The notes under the pieces: model-generated
What the model saw: the letters and a program-made list of their open reading frames with translations, nothing else
The model's database searches: none
Told to the model about the DNA's origin: nothing
In this document: positions 3,700 to 51,280 of the stretch, one piece after another
Layout of the letters: the number at the start of each line of letters is the position of its first letter
How positions within the stretch are numbered: position 1 is the first letter of the stretch
Assembly: GCA_045641325.1 (NCBI GenBank)
Contig: JAZUGU010000138.1
Location: 440-64,439, forward strand
Direction of reading: 5' to 3'
Length of the DNA: 64,000 bases
Source of the DNA: Candidatus Avispirillum sp.
Lineage (GTDB): Bacteria; Bacillota; Clostridia; Oscillospirales; CAG-272
Made by a program: the position numbers and the translations under genes

Positions 3700-3757
3700 A
3701 TGTGCTTGTCTCCTTTTCTGTTGAGATGATTTAATTATAACAACAGAAATGCAATTA

Positions 3758-3781
3758 TGTTAGGACAACTTTTGTCGTATT
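3758..3781 (-). promoter_or_regulatory. 24-bp operator-like box, copy 2 (+ strand TGTTAGGACAACTTTTGTCGTATT), upstream of the 407-aa/XRE operon
   Basis: Same box as 2238..2261. Ends 18 nt upstream (minus sense) of a TATAAT (3734..3739), which lies 35 nt from ATG 3699. The other copy shows the same geometry (36 nt). Confidence 0.55.
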
Positions 3782-3820
3782 GATGTTTTAGAACCTTTTG
3801 GATATACAAGCCTTTTTCAT

Positions 3821-4273
3821 TTATATTTTCAACCATTTTTGATATGCTTCTCCTCGTTTTAGAGAAAATTGTGATTGCAGTCCTTTTTCCAAAGCCTTTT
3901 TTTCGTTTTCCAACTCAACTTCGGTTTTGTTATGACAAGTACCATGATTTTGAGCATATTCTATATCTCCAATTAGGATATTGCATTTTTCAGCAGTCTG
4001 TATGATGTTGTTTCGTAATTTGCCATATTCTTCATTAAAAAGTGCGACCACTTCCTGTTCTGAGTACTTTGTAATATGTTTCATTTCTCCTTGCCAACCC
4101 CAACAAGGTAGTATTTCAAAAACAAATTTCTCAAAATCATCTAATGTTTTCGCTCTCCTATCAAACAAGGCTATTCTTTCCTGGCGATGATAAATACGTA
4201 TAGCCGTAATTATAGCGCCAACTGCACCAAGTCCAGAGAGTGCAGTGAATATCATTATAAAGCAATCATACAT
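3821..4273 (-). CDS. hypothetical single-pass membrane protein (150 aa)
   Basis: N-terminal hydrophobic helix FIMIFTALSGLGAVGAIITAI. GGAG in the preceding ORF's last codons. Starts 4 nt after the stop of the small ORF 4278..4442. No family recognised. Confidence 0.65.
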   Translation of the reverse strand: MYDCFIMIFTALSGLGAVGAIITAIRIYHRQERIALFDRRAKTLDDFEKFVFEILPCWGWQGEMKHITKYSEQEVVALFNEEYGKLRNNIIQTAEKCNILIGDIEYAQNHGTCHNKTEVELENEKKALEKGLQSQFSLKRGEAYQKWLKI

Positions 4274-13593: not shown

Positions 13594-13624
13594 GAAATAT
13601 AAAAAGCCCCTGCAAAGGGGCGCT

Positions 13625-13841
13625 CACTTAGGGAGAGAGGCGCCGCTGATTGTTCGTTCTGAATACAGTCGCCTTACAAAAGTACGGCAGGTGTTCAGAA
13701 CGGACAAAGGAAAGATATAACAAAATGACCGAAACGAAAGTTTCGGTCATTTTTTCATTAGATATTCGGAAAATCTCCCACCATTCGTGACCTAACAGAG
13801 TATTTCTTCTTTCCGGTCAGTGGTGAAAAAATCCCTAAGTG
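13625..13841 (+). repeat. 217-nt structured repeat element, copy 1
   Basis: Same length as 49069..49285 and collinear with it: 6 point differences plus a flipped 4-nt loop in the first 142 nt, then a divergent segment of about 40 nt. Terminal inverted repeats CACTTAGGGA / TCCCTAAGTG. See findings. Confidence 0.85.
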
Positions 13842-13869
13842 AAGCCCCGTAAGGGGGCTTTTTCTTTGA

Positions 13870-19935: not shown

Positions 19936-22692
19936 GTGAAAAAAACGACTAAAAGATTGCTTGAAGTTCTGACAGTTGCAGTGCTTCTGTGCGTTTTGCT
20001 CGTAGGCGTGTTCTCGGCATCTGCTGTGTCCGATGATCCCGCCGACAGCTATGTTAAGCAGAACGCGGCAAACGAGGATTCAAGCCTTTCAATGTGGTTT
20101 GACCACTCATTCCGCAAGACGTTCACTTCTGATGTGACGTCCACCGGAAAGGAAACTTACTCTATCTACATGGCGAAGAACGAGATAGAATCGGCCCAGG
20201 TAGTGCTTTATTCCGCAACCGATAGAACCGGAATGAACATCGAAGTTACCGATTTTACCGACGGCAACGGTAATACAGTTCCCGCAGAACTGTATTACGA
20301 AATGTATGTCACTACTTCAAAGCTGAACTCCGCCTATGTGCTGGGAGCAACGGCAAATGACACTATCATCCGCTCCGGCGAGACCCCCGACCCCGTGCTC
20401 CCCTACTCGGCTCTCGGAACAAAAAGCAAACCCGCGACTTTCAAACTCAACGCAGGCAAGTCTCAGGCGTTCCTTATCCGTGCAACGTCCGCTGAGGATA
20501 CTCCTGCCGGCTGGTATTCCGCACAGCTCAACGTGTATGATTCAAACGGCAACCAGGTAAAGACCGCTACCGTTTATCTGCACGTCTGGGATTTTGTTAT
20601 TTCTGATGAGACCGCACTGCAGACTGCGTTCTTTATGGGAAATAATACTTCATACGGCGGCTCATATCAGGCCTTCTACGATTATTTCCTTGAGAACAGA
20701 CTCAACGCTATGGACGTTCCCGGCGGAAAAATCACCTCTTCCAATCCTTATCTGACCAATCCCCGTGTAACGGCAGTCCGTATGTCCACGACAGGTCTTG
20801 GTTCAGTATCCGGTTCTACGTATATGGATGGCACTAACCAGTATGGTCAGTATCTTCCCATGTATTACGATTTGTCTGCTTCCCCCAACTGGGACGAGTT
20901 TAAGGATAAGCTGTATTTCTACACTGTTGATGAGCCTACATCCGAGGAACAGCACGATGCAATAAGACTGTCACAGCCTAATTTCACCGGTGTTACCATC
21001 GACAATGTAAAAAGCGCCAGCGCTTATCTCAGCCGCTTCTGGCCCGATGCAAATACGGTAGTTCCTTATCATGAGGATCATCCTTATCCTTATTACAGAT
21101 ATCCCAACAATCCCGCAACATATTCCTACGGCGAGAGACGTGATGCAACTGAAGAACTGCTGATAACAGGCTCCGTTACCACATGGTGTCCTCAGATTTA
21201 CGCATTCACTCCCAAATATGAGCTTGATGCGGTAAACTACATTGGCGGCGAAGACACTTATATTCGTGAGCTGGGATGCACAATTTCCGGCATATACTGC
21301 GCAGGACCCAAGGGAACAACTGTATTCGGTTCTCCCTATGTTGACTGGACCGAGCAGTTCGGTGAATTCCACGACAGAGTAATGTCCCATCAGATAGTTG
21401 AAAACGCCAAGGGCGGCAATTACAAGCTGTGGGCATACTCCGCAGGCTGGAATAAGGGCTATACTTATTGTAACCACCTTATCGAGAACACCGGACTGCA
21501 GACAAAACTTCTGTTCTGGCAGCTCTTCCAGAACGACGTTACCGGTTATCTCTACTACGGCACGAATAACTGGGATGAATACAAGACAGGTCACGATTCC
21601 ACCACAACCGGTGCAAAATCCACCTGTACATGGTTTGTAAACCGTCACGACTACGGCACCGGATATTCCATCTTCGGTAACGGTACTCTGTTCTACGGTA
21701 AGAACATGGCAAGAGTATCTGCTGTTGATGTTGTCGGTACTCTCCGTATCGAAATTCTCCGCGACGGCGTTGAAGAATATCAGATGCTGAAAATGCTGTC
21801 CGATATGAAGGGCAACAATGCTGCAAAGGACGTTGTATCCGAAGTATCCGCCAACGTTGTAAATTACCTGTCCCTCAATAATTTCTCAACCTCCGCCTGG
21901 GGCAATATGGATGATTACGACATTATGGAAACCGTCAGACGCAACCTTGGTGCCGCTGTTGAAGAGGCATCAGCTGACGTTTGCGAGCATAACTGGGACG
22001 ACGGCGTTGAGACCAAGGCAGCTACATGCAAGGTCATGGGCGAAACCACTTATACATGTACTGAGTGCGGTGCCGTTAAGACCGAGTATATCCCCGCAAG
22101 ACATTCCATTCAGGAGAACTTTACTGAAATCGGCGGAACTCCTGCAACTTGTACTGAAAACGGAAATATCGTTTACAGATGTAATTTCTGCGACTATGAA
22201 AAGTCAGTTGATATTATTGCATTCCATAACGACGAGTTTTCATGGGCCTATGAAATGAAGAGCGACAGCGCTCACGTCATTAAATGCTCCGTGTGCGGTA
22301 CGACTCTCGTTTCCTCTGAAGCTCACGACATGCGTCATGAGAACAGGGAACCTACCTGCACCGAGGCGGGCGTTGAAAGAGATTACTGTCGCGTATGCGA
22401 TTATGAGGCCAATGTTATTGAGGGCGATCCCGCAACCGGACACAACTATGTTGACGGTGTATGTACTGCTTGCGGCGAGCCCGATCCTTCGTACAACCCC
22501 GAACCTCCCGCACCGGAATTTATTCCCGGAGATCTTGACGGCGACAATAAAGTCACCGCAAAGGACATCAACCTCATGAAAAAGATGATGACCGGCGTTG
22601 TGGCTTATGTTGACGCAGCTGACTTGAACGGAGACAACAAGCTGACTGTTGCCGACGTTAACCAGCTGAAGAAAATCGTTACCGGTTCATAA
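19936..22692 (+). CDS. secreted DUF4091 (GH123-like) protein with Cys-rich repeats and a C-terminal type-I dockerin
   Basis: Signal peptide. A DUF4091-like N-terminal two thirds. Three or four repeats of H-x...ATC-x...Y-x-C-x2-CG. Terminal DLDGDNKVTAKD...DLNGDNKLTVAD dockerin duplication. Confidence 0.8.
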   Translation: MKKTTKRLLEVLTVAVLLCVLLVGVFSASAVSDDPADSYVKQNAANEDSSLSMWFDHSFRKTFTSDVTSTGKETYSIYMAKNEIESAQVVLYSATDRTGMNIEVTDFTDGNGNTVPAELYYEMYVTTSKLNSAYVLGATANDTIIRSGETPDPVLPYSALGTKSKPATFKLNAGKSQAFLIRATSAEDTPAGWYSAQLNVYDSNGNQVKTATVYLHVWDFVISDETALQTAFFMGNNTSYGGSYQAFYDYFLENRLNAMDVPGGKITSSNPYLTNPRVTAVRMSTTGLGSVSGSTYMDGTNQYGQYLPMYYDLSASPNWDEFKDKLYFYTVDEPTSEEQHDAIRLSQPNFTGVTIDNVKSASAYLSRFWPDANTVVPYHEDHPYPYYRYPNNPATYSYGERRDATEELLITGSVTTWCPQIYAFTPKYELDAVNYIGGEDTYIRELGCTISGIYCAGPKGTTVFGSPYVDWTEQFGEFHDRVMSHQIVENAKGGNYKLWAYSAGWNKGYTYCNHLIENTGLQTKLLFWQLFQNDVTGYLYYGTNNWDEYKTGHDSTTTGAKSTCTWFVNRHDYGTGYSIFGNGTLFYGKNMARVSAVDVVGTLRIEILRDGVEEYQMLKMLSDMKGNNAAKDVVSEVSANVVNYLSLNNFSTSAWGNMDDYDIMETVRRNLGAAVEEASADVCEHNWDDGVETKAATCKVMGETTYTCTECGAVKTEYIPARHSIQENFTEIGGTPATCTENGNIVYRCNFCDYEKSVDIIAFHNDEFSWAYEMKSDSAHVIKCSVCGTTLVSSEAHDMRHENREPTCTEAGVERDYCRVCDYEANVIEGDPATGHNYVDGVCTACGEPDPSYNPEPPAPEFIPGDLDGDNKVTAKDINLMKKMMTGVVAYVDAADLNGDNKLTVADVNQLKKIVTGS

Positions 22693-22708: not shown

Positions 22709-22745
22709 CAAAATGACCGAAACTTATGTTTCGGTCATTTTTTTA
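22709..22745. terminator. bidirectional intrinsic terminator (ATGACCGAAAC-TTAT-GTTTCGGTCAT flanked by an A-run and a T-run)
   Basis: 11-bp perfect stem with T6 downstream and A4 upstream, between convergent genes. Same stem as the internal hairpin of the 217-nt repeat. Confidence 0.8.
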
Positions 22746-41652: not shown

Positions 41653-41791
41653 AATATCACTCTCCGTTTTTATTAACTTCCGGTTCTGCTTTTAGTATTT
41701 CCGTCCGGAGCGTGCATTTAATCACCGTAAGTGAAAAAAGTACATCTGCTCCGTTACCATAATATTCCGAAGAGCTGTAATGTGAGCATCA

Positions 41792-41826
41792 TGAGAAAAG
41801 CGGTTAAGGATTATCCTTAACCGCTT
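41792..41826 (-). terminator. intrinsic terminator after the tagA-like gene
   Basis: The minus strand reads AGCGGTTAAGGA-taa-TCCTTAACCGCT followed by TTTTCT. Confidence 0.75.
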
Positions 41827-41829
41827 TCA

Positions 41830-42597
41830 TTACTTTTTAAACTTGTATATCCAGGTTCCGAAATAGAATTTCGGAAGCTTCATCATTCTGCCTATCCTTT
41901 TCGGCTCGCACAGAAGTCTGTAAAACCACTCAAGGTTCAATTTGATAAACAGCTTGGGGGCACGTTTCAGATTTCCGGAATATACGTCGAGGCTTCCGCC
42001 TAAAGCGAGGAAAATTTTCACGCCGGGCATTTTTTCTCTGTTTTCGTATATCCACTTTTCCTGCAGGGGAGCACCCAGACAAACGAAAAGAATTTCTGCG
42101 CCGGATTCGTTGATCAGACGGAGTGTTTCTTCGTTTTCTTCACCGTCTTTCTTGCAATATCCGTCACGTGTGCCGCAGATATTGATGCATTCGTATTCTT
42201 TTTCGAATACTGCTTTGCATTGATCGGCAACGGAAATTCCGCTTTCTGTTCTTGTTGCGTCTTTACTGCCGAATAGAAAAACGGGAATATTGCGCCTTGC
42301 GGCCATATCAAGTGTTTTTCTTCCGAGTTCAATTCCCGCTACTTTGCATTTCAGAGGTGTACCGAGAATATTGGACGCTTTTACCACGCCTATACCGTCG
42401 GGAATTATGAGCTCTGCCGAATTGATGATATCATAGTTCTTTTCGTCCTCGATACAAAGCTGAACGATCTCCGGATTGGGTGTGTAAACGGCGGTGGTCT
42501 CACCTGCATCATATCTTTCCTCAAGATACTGTGCGGCTTCATCCAGAGTCACATTATCAAACATGACTCCGCGTACATCGATTTTTTCTGTTTTCAT
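41830..42597 (-). CDS. WecB/TagA/CpsF-family glycosyltransferase
   Basis: 255 aa. Pattern PDGIGVV...LGAP.QE.W of the family. Confidence 0.8.
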   Translation of the reverse strand: MKTEKIDVRGVMFDNVTLDEAAQYLEERYDAGETTAVYTPNPEIVQLCIEDEKNYDIINSAELIIPDGIGVVKASNILGTPLKCKVAGIELGRKTLDMAARRNIPVFLFGSKDATRTESGISVADQCKAVFEKEYECINICGTRDGYCKKDGEENEETLRLINESGAEILFVCLGAPLQEKWIYENREKMPGVKIFLALGGSLDVYSGNLKRAPKLFIKLNLEWFYRLLCEPKRIGRMMKLPKFYFGTWIYKFKK

Positions 42598-47104: not shown

Positions 47105-47916
47105 GAAAAACAGGAAAAATCTATACGGCGATAATTTTCGTCATAATGTACCTGCCTCTCCTTGTAATGGTATTCTTTTCCTTCAACGAAGGGAACAGTA
47201 CTGCAAATTTCACGGGATTTTCTCTTAAATGGTATCAGGAACTGATCGAAGACGAAGCGGCAATGGGAGCCTTGAGAAACACTCTTCTTCTGGCGCTTCT
47301 CAATTCCGTTATAGCTACCGTGCTCGGTACTATGGCCGCCGTCGGCATATTCGGCATGAAAAACAAGTGGTTCAAAACGGGCATTCTGTCTGTTACGAAC
47401 ATACCGATGATGAATCCCGAAATCGTAACGGGTGTTTCTCTGATGCTTCTGTTTGCTTTTGTGGGCAGGCTCACTGCATCACCCGAATCTCTCGGATTCG
47501 GCACTATGCTTATAGCACACGTTACGTTCAGCCTTCCGTATGTTGTTTTGAACGTACTTCCCAAACTTCAGCAGACCGACCCGCACCTTGCCGAAGCGGC
47601 GCAGGATCTGGGAAGCACACCGGTCCATGCATTCTTCAAGGTCGTTCTGCCTTCCATTTCCTCCGGAATTCTGTCCGGTGCACTGATGGCGTTCACGCTT
47701 TCAATTGACGATTTCGTTATCAGTCATTACGTAAGCGGCGGCTTTACAACGCTTCCTTTGCTCATATATAACATGACGAAAAAGCGCGTAACTCCCGAAA
47801 TGTACGCTGTCTGTACGTGTATATTCGTATCCGTGCTGATACTTTTGCTCATCATGAATATATCCCAGATCAAACAAACCAAAAACAAAAATATAAAAAA
47901 TGAAAGGGCCAACTAA
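47101..47916 (+). CDS. potC: spermidine/putrescine ABC transporter permease
   Basis: EAA loop AEAAQDLGST. GTG start overlapping the potB stop. Confidence 0.85.
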   Translation: MRKTGKIYTAIIFVIMYLPLLVMVFFSFNEGNSTANFTGFSLKWYQELIEDEAAMGALRNTLLLALLNSVIATVLGTMAAVGIFGMKNKWFKTGILSVTNIPMMNPEIVTGVSLMLLFAFVGRLTASPESLGFGTMLIAHVTFSLPYVVLNVLPKLQQTDPHLAEAAQDLGSTPVHAFFKVVLPSISSGILSGALMAFTLSIDDFVISHYVSGGFTTLPLLIYNMTKKRVTPEMYAVCTCIFVSVLILLLIMNISQIKQTKNKNIKNERAN

Positions 47917-49031
47917 TGAAAAAAACAGTATCTGTAATTCTTGCGGCAGTTATGGTACTCTGTGCATTCTGCCTTGTCTCCTGCGGCGATTCCGCCCCTG
48001 AAATTGACCCCGCAAAGCTTGAGGGAACGTACACCCGTGATCTTGAGGGCACTACTCTTAAGGTATATAACTGGGGCGAGTATATTTCCGACGGTAAAGA
48101 GGGAACTCTTGACGTAAACAAGGCATTTGAGGAAGTGACCGGTATCGACGTGGTTTATTCCAATTACGATGATAACGAATCCATGTACTCCGAACTTGCG
48201 GCAGGTGCAACCTATTACGACATCATTATCCCCTCCGATTATATGGTCGAGAGACTTATCCGTGAGGGAATGCTTCATGAGATAGACGTTAATACCCTTT
48301 CTAACTATAAATACATTGACGATCAGTATAAAGGACTGTATTTTGACCCGGACGAAAAATTCTCCGTGCCTTACAACCTTGGTATGGTAGGACTTATCTA
48401 CAATACTACCATGGTTGAAGAAGCGCCTACAAGCTGGAGCGCAATGTGGGATTCAAAATATTCCGGACAGATTCTTATGTTCAACAACCCCCGCGATGCT
48501 TTTGCGATCGCACAGTTCCGTCTCGGCCAGAGCCTCAACACTCTTGATAAAGCAGAATGGGATGCAGCTGCCGAACTTCTGAAAGAGCAGAAGCCCGTGC
48601 TCCAGTCTTACGTAATGGACGAGGTGTTCAACAAGATGGAGGGCGGCAATGCCGCAATGGCTCCTTACTATGCCGGTGATTTCCTCTCCATGTATGAGAA
48701 TAATCCCGATCTGGCGTTCGTATATCCCGAAGAGGGTGTTAACATTTTCTGCGATTCTGTCTGCATTCCCGCTAACTGTCAGAATTATGAAGCTGCTATG
48801 CTTTATATGAATTTCCTTATGGAGCCTGCTGTTGCGCTTGAAAATGCCGAAAAATTAGGATATCTTTGTCCTAATACATCCGTTATAAACAACGAAGAGT
48901 ATAGTTACAAAGGAAATGAGATCCTTTATCCCTCCGAAGAAAATATGCCCAAGACACAGTGGTTCCACGATATTGATCCCGAAGTTGTCAAGTATTATGA
49001 AGAGCTTTGGGTCGGCGTAAAGAACAGCTGA
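47916..49031 (+). CDS. potD: spermidine/putrescine-binding lipoprotein
   Basis: Lipobox LVSCGD. PotD-like length and pattern. Confidence 0.85.
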   Translation: MKKTVSVILAAVMVLCAFCLVSCGDSAPEIDPAKLEGTYTRDLEGTTLKVYNWGEYISDGKEGTLDVNKAFEEVTGIDVVYSNYDDNESMYSELAAGATYYDIIIPSDYMVERLIREGMLHEIDVNTLSNYKYIDDQYKGLYFDPDEKFSVPYNLGMVGLIYNTTMVEEAPTSWSAMWDSKYSGQILMFNNPRDAFAIAQFRLGQSLNTLDKAEWDAAAELLKEQKPVLQSYVMDEVFNKMEGGNAAMAPYYAGDFLSMYENNPDLAFVYPEEGVNIFCDSVCIPANCQNYEAAMLYMNFLMEPAVALENAEKLGYLCPNTSVINNEEYSYKGNEILYPSEENMPKTQWFHDIDPEVVKYYEELWVGVKNS

Positions 49032-49068
49032 ATTTATTGATGAAAAAGACCGAAGCATTAGGAGCCCT

Positions 49069-49285
49069 CACATAGGGAGAGAGGCGCCGCTGATCGTTCG
49101 TTCTGAATACCGTCGCCGTACAAAGGTACGGCAAGTGTTCAGAACGGACAAAGGAAAGATATAACAAAATGACCGAAACTTTCGTTTCGGTCATTTTTTC
49201 ATTAGATATTCGGAAATCTTCCCACCGTTCTTGGTTTATTAGTCTTTTTTCTCTTTCCGGTCGGCGGTGAAAAAATCCCTATGTG
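49069..49285 (+). repeat. 217-nt structured repeat element, copy 2
   Basis: Collinear with 13625..13841. Terminal inverted repeats CACATAGGGA / TCCCTATGTG. Nested between AAAAAGACCGAAGC (49043..49056) and GCTTCGGTC+T7 (49299..49314). Confidence 0.85.
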
Positions 49286-49295
49286 TGCGCTCCGT

Positions 49296-50582
49296 TCAGC
49301 TTCGGTCTTTTTTTACTTTTATGACTGCATCGAAAAACTCTTTGTACATATAAAGACTGCCCAATCCCAACGTATCTCCGTCGGAGAGCGCGGCACGAAC
49401 TGCAGCTTCAACCGTCTCAAACGGTTCTGCTTCAATTCCGCAATCAAGGTAGACCTGCGTAAGCTTTTCTGCAGGAAGAGCCCTGGGATTATCGGGTGTA
49501 ACGCAGTACACTTTTTTCGCTACCGTACTTATCATTTCCGCCATTTGTGTGTAGGCTTTATCTGCCATAACACCGGTGACCACGTTGATTTTCACGGGAA
49601 ATACCTCTTTTACGGTTCGTACAGCCGCCGAAACGCCCTGAGGATTGTGTCCGCCGTCGAATATGACCGTGGGATCGCTCGAAAGCCTTTCAAACCTGCC
49701 TCTCCAGCTTGCTCGCTTAAGTCCCTCGTGTATGTATCTCTCGTTGATACAGAGCTTCTCACATGCAGTAATAACAAGTGCTGCGTTCTCCGGCTGATAA
49801 GACCCGGCAAGTGCGATCTTAAACGGATCTTTGTAACCGGAAAAACGGAATGATGCGCCGGTAAGTGAAAGCTTTATGTCGGAAAGTCTGGAATAATCCG
49901 TTTTTTCAAAGGGGGCATTTTTGCTTTCAGCCGCGTTGAATACGACCTTTTCGGATGAATTCAACCCGCCGTCGGCGGGATAAGTCGCTTTGCATTTTCC
50001 GATAAGAACGGGACACCCTTCTTTTATGATCCCGGCTTTTTCTGCCGCGATTTTTTCGCAGGTGTCACCGAGAATTGCAGTATGGTCGAGGTCAATTCCG
50101 GTAATTATCGAAAGCAGAGAGCTTTTGATAACGTTCGTTGAATCGAGCCTGCCGCCCATGCCGGCTTCAAGAACAACAACGTCACATTTTAGGTCTTTGA
50201 AATATTCGAACCCAACGGCGGTTATCAGTTCAAATTCCGTAGGCGGATCAGCCATTTTGTCGGCATATGTCTTAACTTTTTCGACCGTTTTTGCCAGATC
50301 GCCGTCTGATATGGGCTCTTTGCCGATTGCTATACGCTCATTAAAGCGATAAACATAAGGCGATGTGAATACTCCGACTTTCATGCCGGCTTCAGTCAGA
50401 ACGGAAGAGAGCATGGAAGAAACCGAGCCCTTGCCGTTAGTCCCTGCAACGTGGATGAATCGGAGTGAGTCCTGCGGATCGCCGAGCATACCGCATAGCT
50501 CTGTTATTCTCGAAAGTCCGGGACGACTGCCCGTCCATGAAACGGTATGTATGTAATTAATTGCTTCTTCGTATGTCATCAT
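49296..50582 (-). CDS. folC: bifunctional folylpolyglutamate synthase / dihydrofolate synthase
   Basis: HVAGTNGKGS P-loop and Mur-ligase fold pattern. Start uncertain (TTG 50603, ATG 50582 or 50579), with weak SD signals. Confidence 0.9.
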   Translation of the reverse strand: MMTYEEAINYIHTVSWTGSRPGLSRITELCGMLGDPQDSLRFIHVAGTNGKGSVSSMLSSVLTEAGMKVGVFTSPYVYRFNERIAIGKEPISDGDLAKTVEKVKTYADKMADPPTEFELITAVGFEYFKDLKCDVVVLEAGMGGRLDSTNVIKSSLLSIITGIDLDHTAILGDTCEKIAAEKAGIIKEGCPVLIGKCKATYPADGGLNSSEKVVFNAAESKNAPFEKTDYSRLSDIKLSLTGASFRFSGYKDPFKIALAGSYQPENAALVITACEKLCINERYIHEGLKRASWRGRFERLSSDPTVIFDGGHNPQGVSAAVRTVKEVFPVKINVVTGVMADKAYTQMAEMISTVAKKVYCVTPDNPRALPAEKLTQVYLDCGIEAEPFETVEAAVRAALSDGDTLGLGSLYMYKEFFDAVIKVKKDRS

Positions 50583-51111
50583 TTTCGTTAAGTACCTTTG
50601 CAATGACTTTATTTTTGAGCAGAACCGTTATTATTCCGAATTCAATTGCCGCAATCACGATATAAAGGGGCAGTCTCGGGTACAGGAGCGGTATTGCCCA
50701 CGAATACATAATGTGAAGACCTGCAGATTTAACAATTATGTTCCCGACAATGTGAGCAGCGAACACGCTGATAAACAGAACTTTGCCGTTCTTTTTGCCG
50801 ATCAGGTGCGGTATGCTTCCCGCAATAAGCCCGACAAGTCCCGCACCGATAGTGATTATTGGATTGATGCCGCCGAGCCCGTACTGAGATATTGCCGTAC
50901 TGATAATGTCGGACGCCAAACCGCATAAAAGCCCCGGAATCGGACCGAAGAAATATCCCGCCATGATCAGCGGCAGGTTTTCAAAGGTTATCCGGATGTA
51001 CGGCGTGACCGTGAGAAACATCTTGCACAGCCAAGCAATGGCTACGGAGAGTGCCGTCAACATAGCACAGAAGCACATGATCTTCACATTTTTGAATGCT
51101 TTTGATTGCAT
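50557..51111 (-). CDS. folT: folate-family ECF transporter S component
   Basis: 184 aa with 5-6 TM segments. ATG 51111 preferred (GGAGG upstream). Preceded by a THF riboswitch and followed by folC. Confidence 0.8.
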   Translation of the reverse strand: MQSKAFKNVKIMCFCAMLTALSVAIAWLCKMFLTVTPYIRITFENLPLIMAGYFFGPIPGLLCGLASDIISTAISQYGLGGINPIITIGAGLVGLIAGSIPHLIGKKNGKVLFISVFAAHIVGNIIVKSAGLHIMYSWAIPLLYPRLPLYIVIAAIEFGIITVLLKNKVIAKVLNENDDIRRSN

Positions 51112-51159
51112 AAAAAATACCTCCTTCCCGTAGTCAGCGGAATAAGAGGTAATCTTTAT

Positions 51160-51280
51160 GTCCGTTGAAGCGGGATGCAGTATCGGCACCGTATGCCCGC
51201 TTTTCGAAAGAGGACAAATTCGTCCGTGTGACAACTCCCCGTCCACACGGCACTTGCGCACCGAAACTTACTCTTCAGTT
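51160..51280 (-). promoter_or_regulatory. THF (tetrahydrofolate) riboswitch
   Basis: The minus strand reads GAGUAAGUUUCGGUGCGCAAGUGCCGUGUGGACGGGGAGUUGUCACACGGACGAA...GCGGGCAUACGGUGCCGAUACUGCAUCCCGCUUC. This parallels the folT-motif consensus (GAGUAG...GCGUUAAGUG...GGGAUGUCGUCACAC.ACGAAGC...GCAUCCGCUC) as I remember it, and it lies upstream of folT. Confidence 0.8.

Follow-up and report, generated by a model that had tools for sequence, protein, structure and literature searches.

A probable miniature transposon family of Candidatus Avispirillum that occupies the loops of terminator hairpins

How does a repeated sequence come to lie between the two arms of a transcription terminator, and how is it tolerated there? 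The question is raised by a stretch of 64,000 nucleotides from Candidatus Avispirillum sp. (assembly GCA_045641325.1, contig JAZUGU010000138.1), hereafter the window, which holds two copies of one repeat. Copy 2 separates the convergent genes potD and folC; copy 1 lies between an adenosine/AMP-deaminase-family gene and a DUF4956 gene. An original prediction, made from the letters of the window, proposed that copy 2 was inserted into the loop of a bidirectional terminator hairpin and that the repeat prefers such loops. Here we show that the repeat belongs to a family of mobile, non-autonomous DNA elements with terminal inverted repeats and a 2-bp target duplication, found almost exclusively in terminator loops. 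[quoted passage not shown]

Layout of the potD-folC site

The left arm of the outer hairpin, AAAAAGACCGAAGC (49043-49056), has its perfect reverse complement in GCTTCGGTC+T7 (49299-49314). Read on the minus strand, the latter gives AAA AAA GAC CGA AGC TGA, that is K K D R S stop, the end of the 435-codon folC reading frame. The folC stop codon, TCA on the plus strand at 49296-49298, falls within the terminator loop. Between the arms the order is atta-GGAGC-cct-(217-nt core)-tgc-GCTCC-gttca. The original prediction had described the arms, the folC tail and this order correctly. Its layout of copy 1 is equally accurate: AAAAAGCCCC-tgcaaa-GGGGC-gct-(core)-aa-GCCCC-gtaa-GGGGGCTTTTT, with the hairpin arms at 13601-13610 and 13853-13863 and the core at 13625-13841.

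The copy-2 region as a whole folds at -134.5 kcal/mol, against -68.5 +/- 4.8 for shuffled sequences (z = -13.7); the copy-1 region reaches z = -12.7. The arrangement at copy 2 is far from chance, given this fold and a flanking architecture that recurs at ~20 independent sites.

An empty site in a near-identical strain

A search with the FolC protein retrieved a 3.3-kb Logan contig (L001, run SRR19882019) whose FolC is ~99.8% identical to that of the window. Between potD and folC this contig carries only ...tga atttattgatg AAAAAGACCGAAGC ATTCA GCTTCGGTC TTTTTTT..., an uninterrupted hairpin, AAAAAGACCGAAGC-ATTCA-GCTTCGGTCTTTTTTT, whose 5-nt loop contains the folC stop. BLAST aligns the contig to the window in two gap-free blocks at 99.79% identity, with 7 mismatches in 3.3 kb. 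The blocks stop at window positions 49295 and 49059, and in the contig they overlap by exactly 2 nt. From this overlap and the 235 extra bp, it follows that the window allele consists of the empty allele, a 235-bp element (49060-49294) and a duplicate TT, a comparison made on one allele pair. The duplication leaves the folC stop codon intact. Copy 2 is inserted in the 5-nt loop (ATTCA) of the bidirectional potD/folC terminator, directly 3' of the folC stop.

The empty hairpin is terminator-like by our scan and folds at -21.9 kcal/mol. It has the G+C-rich stem, short loop, 3' T-run and A-tract of an intrinsic terminator, from which its termination activity is predicted.

The original prediction held that the outer hairpin is older than the element, and had named an empty terminator in a relative as the test; the 99.79%-identical contig has the hairpin intact and no element. 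The premise behind it, that the arm lies in conserved coding sequence, did not survive, as orthologues at <=75% identity each have a FolC tail of their own. Beyond the conserved ...GSLYMYKEFxDA(V), they continue with NG, KSNTV, KETVG, QKIT, CKQKLL and others, and the KVKKDRS tail is common only to the window and the same-species contig. It is thus the empty site, not coding conservation, that shows the arm to be older than the element.

The element family and its true ends

When 15 short copies are aligned, they remain homologous for 9 nt past the 217-nt core on both sides. The element is therefore 235 bp long and not, as first described, 217 nt. The GGAGC/GCTCC pair, previously taken for a separate layer, is homologous across all copies and covaries; it makes up the outer end of the terminal inverted repeats (TIRs). 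These are 19 nt long and are kept in all copies. The left end of the family reads A-GGRGC-N3-CACWTAGGGA, the right end TCCCTWWGTG-N2-3-GCYCC-G(T); the column pair 4/237 covaries, being A-U in 8 copies and G-C in 5. Copies 1 and 2 are 87% identical and stand for two subfamilies, CACTTAGGGA and CACATAGGGA respectively.

We searched one genome each of 185,579 species with the left-end 20-mer GGGAGAGAGGCGCCGCTGAT. All 19 matches lie in GCA_045597805.1, a metagenome-assembled genome (MAG) of Candidatus Avispirillum sp. (Bacillota, Clostridia). BLAST and nhmmer over the fetched loci find at least 21 copies in this MAG and, with the two of the 64-kb window, at least 23 in total. The MAG copies, which make up most of the family and have contig-level context with ORF-based calls for the neighbouring genes, include one decayed copy, one tandem dimer and five long variants. 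None is longer than ~355 bp and none contains a gene. No conserved ORF occurs in the element, and alignment columns 150-197 carry indels; a small ORF starting from an ATG in the internal hairpin was discarded, its length and frame differing between copies. As in a MITE, the element is non-coding and shorter than ~500 bp, has TIRs, a target duplication and an empty site, and occurs in multiple dispersed copies.

Further searches returned no relative. Against Rfam 15 at E <= 10, the element gives only terminator-like noise (E > 0.01), and at gathering score the whole window gives a tetrahydrofolate (THF) riboswitch at 51166-51277 only. BLAST of plasmid and phage collections and two viral-contig scans yield no element match. 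A scan of JGI metagenomes with the both-ends pattern CACWTAGGGANNNNNNCRCCGCTGA yields 14 single matches, all due to chance and without homology to the element.

A second sample also has copy 1 at the corresponding site, on a contig (L037) that ends inside the element, at 1643. This is the sole near-identical contig at the copy-1 site, and it is filled. Two contigs of ~80% identity (L035 and L036) were set aside as empty sites for copy 1; they have different synteny and different plain terminators. Another contig, L009, ends at 402, likewise inside a copy. Contigs that end in this way indicate that the element breaks short-read assemblies, and copy numbers are probably underestimated.

The long variants (L012-L016, e.g. 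L013 749-1092) have a core of 292-336 bp, their right half bearing an additional hairpin module of ~75-120 bp. In it lies a perfect hairpin, TTTGTGACTTTTGCCGCC-TATT-GGCGGCAAAAGTCACAAA, and the module may have arisen by nested insertion of some other small element. The tandem dimer (L010 1606-2075) is head-to-tail, with its units one A apart and the second unit more diverged.

Insertion into terminator loops

We delimited 20 complete copies by a uniform rule, as the core +/- 9 nt. Matching 2-bp flanks are found in 15 of them (TT six times, AA four times, TC three times, GA and TA once each), against a chance expectation of ~1.25. When the element and one repeat are taken out, 18 of the 20 sites become an A-tract, a 5-10-bp G+C-rich stem, a 3-6-nt loop and a T-tract. 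The insertion point lies in the loop, within ~1 nt of the dyad, in 18 of the 20 reconstructed sites. The proposed preference for terminator loops is borne out by these restored hairpins (18/20); the two exceptions are L007, the sole copy at a non-hairpin junction, and the tandem dimer of L010. L007 is truncated at its right end and has a 6-nt direct repeat, ATTATT, on both sides. A TA-specific duplication of the IS630/mariner type was rejected, TA accounting for only 1 of the 15 matching duplications; the target dinucleotide seems weakly biased towards T/A-rich pairs.

Terminator loops make up, by a rough estimate, ~<=1% of intergenic DNA, yet 18 of 20 copies are found there. Random insertion followed by selection alone is insufficient to account for this, which points to real targeting. 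Since the arm sequences are unrelated between the ~20 sites, the target appears to be chosen by hairpin or inverted-repeat geometry and not by arm sequence.

The convergent setting is a partial rule. Most sites do lie between convergent genes, as supposed, but at least three copies occupy terminators between co-directional genes (L002 3627-3861, L002 18557-18765 and L004 7354-7589, the last named L004b). In all three unambiguous co-directional sites, the plus strand of the element is the sense strand for the upstream gene. Both L002 copies are syntenic with window positions where the window has a plain terminator and no element. At potD-folC the reverse is seen: the window is filled, and the Ca. 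Avispirillum MAG, whose FolC is 75% identical, has another plain terminator (AAAAAGCCCCGAAATGGGGCTTTTT).

A second family of repeats, of ~300 nt, occurs in the Avispirillum MAG at, in approximate coordinates, L006 ~3700-3960(-), L014, L015 700-980, L019 60-330 and L003. Its terminal inverted repeats are of low complexity, (A)GTTTTAAGAGTTAAGTTTTAAG ... CTTAAAACTTAACTCTTAAAAC, and its members adjoin the A-tract side of terminators carrying the 235-bp element. Other elements with low-complexity ends are found in L013 and L016. In this MAG, small repeats appear to land generally in the neighbourhood of terminators.

Fold and internal terminator

The RNAalifold consensus of the family contains 71 pairs in 8 helices. 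Paired cells amount to 97.4%, compared with 35-44% when the partners are slid; 10 pairs show compensatory changes, and none of 500 shuffles reaches the observed covariation score. Wobble cells are one-sided, 88 G-T versus 16 A-C, which makes the plus strand the one under folding constraint.

Helices 1 and 2 are formed by the TIRs. An invariant purine-rich internal loop, GAGAGG opposite GAAAAAA, follows the TIR stems, and helix 3 (CGCCGCTGAT / GTCRGCGGTG) closes a three-way junction. One branch of the junction is a long hairpin made of helices 4 and 5, in the left half; within the predicted potD 3' untranslated region (UTR) it forms on its own. Helix 6 (GGMAAG/CTTKCC) leads into a central hairpin, and a variable, indel-rich stretch follows.

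In every copy, the central hairpin stands between an A-tract and a T-tract. It has the stem, loop, T-run and A-tract of an intrinsic terminator, and its termination activity is predicted from these features. Its stem is nearly invariant across copies and its 4-nt loop is hypervariable. In a consensus scan, no sigma-70-like promoter was found in the element. The decayed MAG copy (L002 18557-18765) stands directly after the stop of a WecG-family glycosyltransferase gene, at a position syntenic with a plain terminator of the window (41790-41830). Its terminator segment is identical to the consensus at 37 of 40 positions and its left part at 57 of 100, and the helix 4/5 hairpin is deleted.

The compensatory changes and the G-T asymmetry may reflect selection acting on the element as RNA or as single-stranded DNA. 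Sense orientation, plus-strand G-U pairs and survival of the terminator in the decayed copy would fit RNA-level selection on the left half, with small numbers throughout.

In closely related copies, the loops of the central hairpin occur as flip pairs, TTTC/GAAA and TCAG/CTGA: window 49180-49183 versus 13736-13739, L010/L020 versus L017, and L013 versus L012. Such reverse-complement loops are the signature of hairpin-loop inversion, which suggests that the hairpin forms in DNA in vivo.

Solo terminators with the internal-hairpin stem (GACCGRARC...GYTTCGGTC) are also found, at window 22709-22741, at L015 676-697 and in the target hairpin of copy 2. The one at 22.7 kb was rejected as a relic of a full element; similarity past the hairpin is weak and lies in coding sequence. 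Either a common type of native terminator was taken up by the element, or hairpins of this kind spread by themselves.

A model for insertion and tolerance

In the proposed mechanism, a transposase supplied in trans would make a 2-bp staggered cut near the dyad of a palindromic target, recognising inverted-repeat geometry rather than arm sequence. Among known systems, the IS30 family would be the best-fitting precedent for mobilisation; the mobilising enzyme and its family are conjecture.

Transcription that enters from the potD side would pass through the left arm, then the left TIR half and the hairpin of helices 4 and 5, before it reaches the internal terminator. The predicted 148-nt RNA folds alone into those two hairpins, at -64.2 kcal/mol (z = -8.6). 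A polymerase coming from folC would meet the same internal hairpin reversed, then UUUUGUUAU. In this way the internal terminator would stand in for the split one, with the outer arms seldom pairing in RNA. The element would be tolerated because its strong central bidirectional terminator would end transcripts from either flanking gene, and the plus-strand hairpin upstream of that terminator would become part of the 3' UTR of the upstream gene. The original prediction saw the nested hairpins as a transcriptional insulator. This idea probably misses the point: if transcripts from either side end at the central terminator, the outer arms cannot pair first, and the central terminator would explain tolerance better.

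Several observations count against the model of a MITE-like family that targets terminator loops. Five of the 20 copies lack matching flanks. L007 2470-2704, the only non-hairpin copy, has truncated ends and lies between abutting convergent ORFs, and the site L010 is a tandem dimer. Compensatory changes and G-T asymmetry are not needed by a purely double-stranded cut-and-paste element. Termination at the internal hairpin is a prediction, and two alleles do not distinguish insertion from precise excision. Finally, no transposase or autonomous relative with these ends occurs in the window or the ~155 kb of MAG loci, nor was one found in the plasmid, phage, viral and JGI metagenome collections. 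When further TIR-like ends of an autonomous parent were sought in the ~220 kb of window and MAG loci, only chance 10-mers appeared.

Alternative explanations

It is possible, though we think it unlikely, that the machinery reads nucleic-acid shape: any terminator hairpin would be accepted, be it a cruciform or single-stranded DNA or RNA, with integration at its loop. The element would then act as a strand-specific folded molecule, with the plus-strand fold, the GAGAGG/GAAAAAA loop and the terminator stem as parts of a transposition intermediate or guide. If true, this would be structure-guided 'safe-harbour' integration without a described enzyme, in which the host terminator is swapped for the element's own.

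Somewhat less probable still is a functional RNA module selected by the host, such as a 3'-UTR stabiliser, a small RNA or a portable terminator, with mobility incidental or historical. Covariation with plus-strand G-U pairs in the left-half hairpin, upstream of the terminator, speaks for such a module, as do the near-invariant terminator, which the decayed copy keeps (37/40) while the rest erodes, the sense orientation in three of three co-directional sites and the presence of copy 1 in a second sample. Against it, the element has no promoter-like site and no Rfam family, its right half is variable and carries indels, and the flanking genes are functionally unrelated. Moreover, copy 2 is present or absent, with a clean target duplication, between strains 99.8% identical.

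We find it rather doubtful that the element moves as single-stranded DNA through an HUH/Y1 enzyme, similar to those of IS200/IS605 or to REP-associated tyrosine transposases (RAYTs; REP, repetitive extragenic palindromic), with the loop of an extruded terminator hairpin as its target. The fold is indeed strand-specific (88 G-T versus 16 A-C cells), compensatory changes maintain the pairing of the internal helices, the target is the one part of the hairpin that is single-stranded, and the flip pairs TTTC/GAAA and TCAG/CTGA suggest a hairpin in DNA. However, elements of the IS200/IS605 type have no terminal inverted repeats, make no target duplication and insert 3' of a fixed tetra- or pentanucleotide. 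The 19-nt TIRs, the 2-bp duplication in 15 of 20 copies and the variable flanks found here are at odds with this, and the REP-like GTAG/CGTC tag is not present; an IS200/IS605-derived or REP/RAYT-type element was rejected on these grounds.

That the outer arms belong to the repeat, which would duplicate as one large nested palindrome, is next to impossible: the copy-1 ends GGGGC/GCCCC are complementary to the outer arms, so that two small flanking hairpins could form, and the copy-2 arms GACCGAAGC resemble the internal hairpin stem GACCGAAAC, but the empty site of L001 refutes it by having the arms without the element, arm sequences differ at every one of the ~20 sites, and homology between copies stops exactly at the core +/- 9 nt.

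Comparison with known systems

The Correia/NEMIS, ERIC, RUP, BOX and above all SPRITE elements, bacterial MITEs with long hairpin folds at the 3' ends of genes, resemble the present one: they are small, non-coding and multi-copy, have paired terminal inverted repeats and are enriched downstream of genes. None of them is described as inserting in pre-existing terminator loops. Correia and RUP duplicate TA-type targets. SPRITE of Streptococcus pneumoniae resembles a Rho-independent terminator and was proposed to act as one (PMC3049150; review PMC10969869), and a target duplication or empty site could not be established for it (PMC3049150). Contrary to such hairpin MITEs, the present element has a proven empty site and a 2-bp duplication of variable sequence, and its terminator is central in a larger branched fold.

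Members of the IS30 family make 2-3-bp duplications and prefer palindromic targets. The 2-bp duplication found here, within ~1 nt of the hairpin dyad, has this pattern. As cited in PMC3317919, IS1630 of Mycoplasma fermentans, an IS30-family element, targets inverted repeats of variable sequence and duplicates the whole inverted repeat, 16-26 bp. The structure-like recognition of diverse inverted repeats is similar; in contrast to IS1630, our element splits the inverted repeat at its loop, with a 2-bp duplication. The possible IS30 link is drawn only from target and duplication pattern, no IS30-type transposase or autonomous copy having been found in the loci and collections searched.

IS1397 and ISKpn1 (IS3), as well as IS621, ISPpu9 and ISPpu10 (IS110), insert inside extragenic palindromic hairpins (PMC1525189, PMC8450116, PMC12288879). 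These elements, which target REPs or bacterial interspersed mosaic elements (BIMEs), are autonomous and use one repeated REP sequence, in IS110 partly via a bridge RNA; the present element is non-autonomous and targets unique terminators with unrelated arms. According to PMC4424553, which cites Robart et al. 2007, class C (IIC) group II introns use intrinsic-terminator motifs as an insertion signal, whatever the gene. These introns, which are ribozyme retroelements, insert downstream of the terminator stem-loop, whereas our element is 235 bp long, lies inside the loop, and has terminal inverted repeats and a target duplication. A group IIC intron was rejected, with no significant Rfam match and insertion inside the loop.

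REPINs and RAYT-mobilised REP elements are short extragenic palindromes and mobile units with a conserved hairpin (PMC3116915, PMC3333891). REPs measure 20-40 bp, have GTAG/CGTC tags and make no target duplication (PMC3733652). The present element differs in being larger, branched and TIR-bounded and in duplicating 2 bp. The searchable literature yielded no MITE that has the loops of ordinary intrinsic terminators as its target and a bidirectional terminator at its centre.

Transposons owe their survival to the choice of harmless sites. Altogether, the present family appears to combine a preference for terminator loops of any sequence with a built-in bidirectional terminator that should restore what it breaks. 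If the prediction of termination is true, the 3' ends of many unrelated genes are rewritten at little cost in an uncultured lineage of gut Clostridia, and the elements are natural "portable terminators". The enzyme, if a structure-directed integrase, would be of practical interest. The copies also explain assembly breaks in MAGs of this lineage, and they offer strain-level insertion markers, copy 2 being polymorphic between strains 99.8% identical.

Features of the window and neighbouring genes

The coordinates of the element, its parts and the flanking genes are collected in Table 1. Look-ups of exact protein sequences gave no record for the window's FolC (with one start), DUF4956 and potD-like proteins or for P0121 and P0241.

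Table 1 Features of the two element copies, the potD-folC site and a related solo hairpin, in window positions.
Feature	Position	Strand	Remarks
Copy 2, 235-bp MITE-like element, subfamily A ('CACATAGGGA')	49060..49294	+	Absent from L001; homologous to at least 22 other copies
Copy 1, 235-bp element, subfamily B ('CACTTAGGGA')	13616..13850	+	Flanks AA/AA at 13614-15 and 13851-52
Left terminal inverted repeat, AGGAGCCCTCACATAGGGA	49060..49078	+	Pairs with 49276-49294; helices 1 and 2; compensatory changes in column pairs 4/237 and 13/228
Right terminal inverted repeat, TCCCTATGTGTGCGCTCCG	49276..49294	+	Part of consensus helices 1 and 2
Conserved internal hairpin, helices 4 + 5, left half	49095..49150	+	6 compensatory pairs; many G-U pairs, on the plus strand only
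Internal bidirectional intrinsic terminator (predicted), AAAATGACCGAAAC-TTTC-GTTTCGGTCATTTTTT	49166..49199	.	Terminator-like by scan
Left arm of pre-existing bidirectional terminator hairpin, A-tract + GACCGAAGC	49043..49056	.	In L001, the empty allele, forms an unbroken hairpin with the right arm
Right arm of pre-existing terminator, GCTTCGGTC+T7	49299..49314	.	Minus strand encodes the last five folC codons, KKDRS
Left TT of the 2-bp target-site duplication	49058..49059	.	Loop positions 2-3 of ATTCA in the empty allele
Right TT of the target-site duplication	49295..49296	.	Position 49296 doubles as the final base of the folC stop codon
potD-like ABC-transporter solute-binding protein, convergent with folC	47916..49031	+	Pfam SBP_bac_8/6/1; synteny with L002
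folC, folylpolyglutamate synthase / Mur-ligase family	49296..50603	-	Pfam Mur_ligase_M + Mur_ligase_C; homologues labelled FolC by their sources
Solo terminator hairpin, AAAATGACCGAAAC-TTAT-GTTTCGGTCATTTTTTT	22709..22741	.	Stem as in the element's internal terminator; similarity limited to hairpin and A/T tracts

The THF riboswitch (Rfam RF01831, 68 bits) lies on the minus strand, upstream of a gene for the S component of an energy-coupling factor (ECF) transporter (50557-51261), which overlaps folC. Riboswitch, S-component gene and folC form a folate-sensing uptake and polyglutamylation operon that ends at the potD-folC terminator.

Elsewhere in the window, a 918-aa ORF (19936-22692, plus strand) ends in a dockerin-like repeat (...DLNGDNKLTVADVNQLKKIVTGS), a motif recognised by eye, which suggests that its product may be a cellulosome-type or scaffold-bound extracellular protein.

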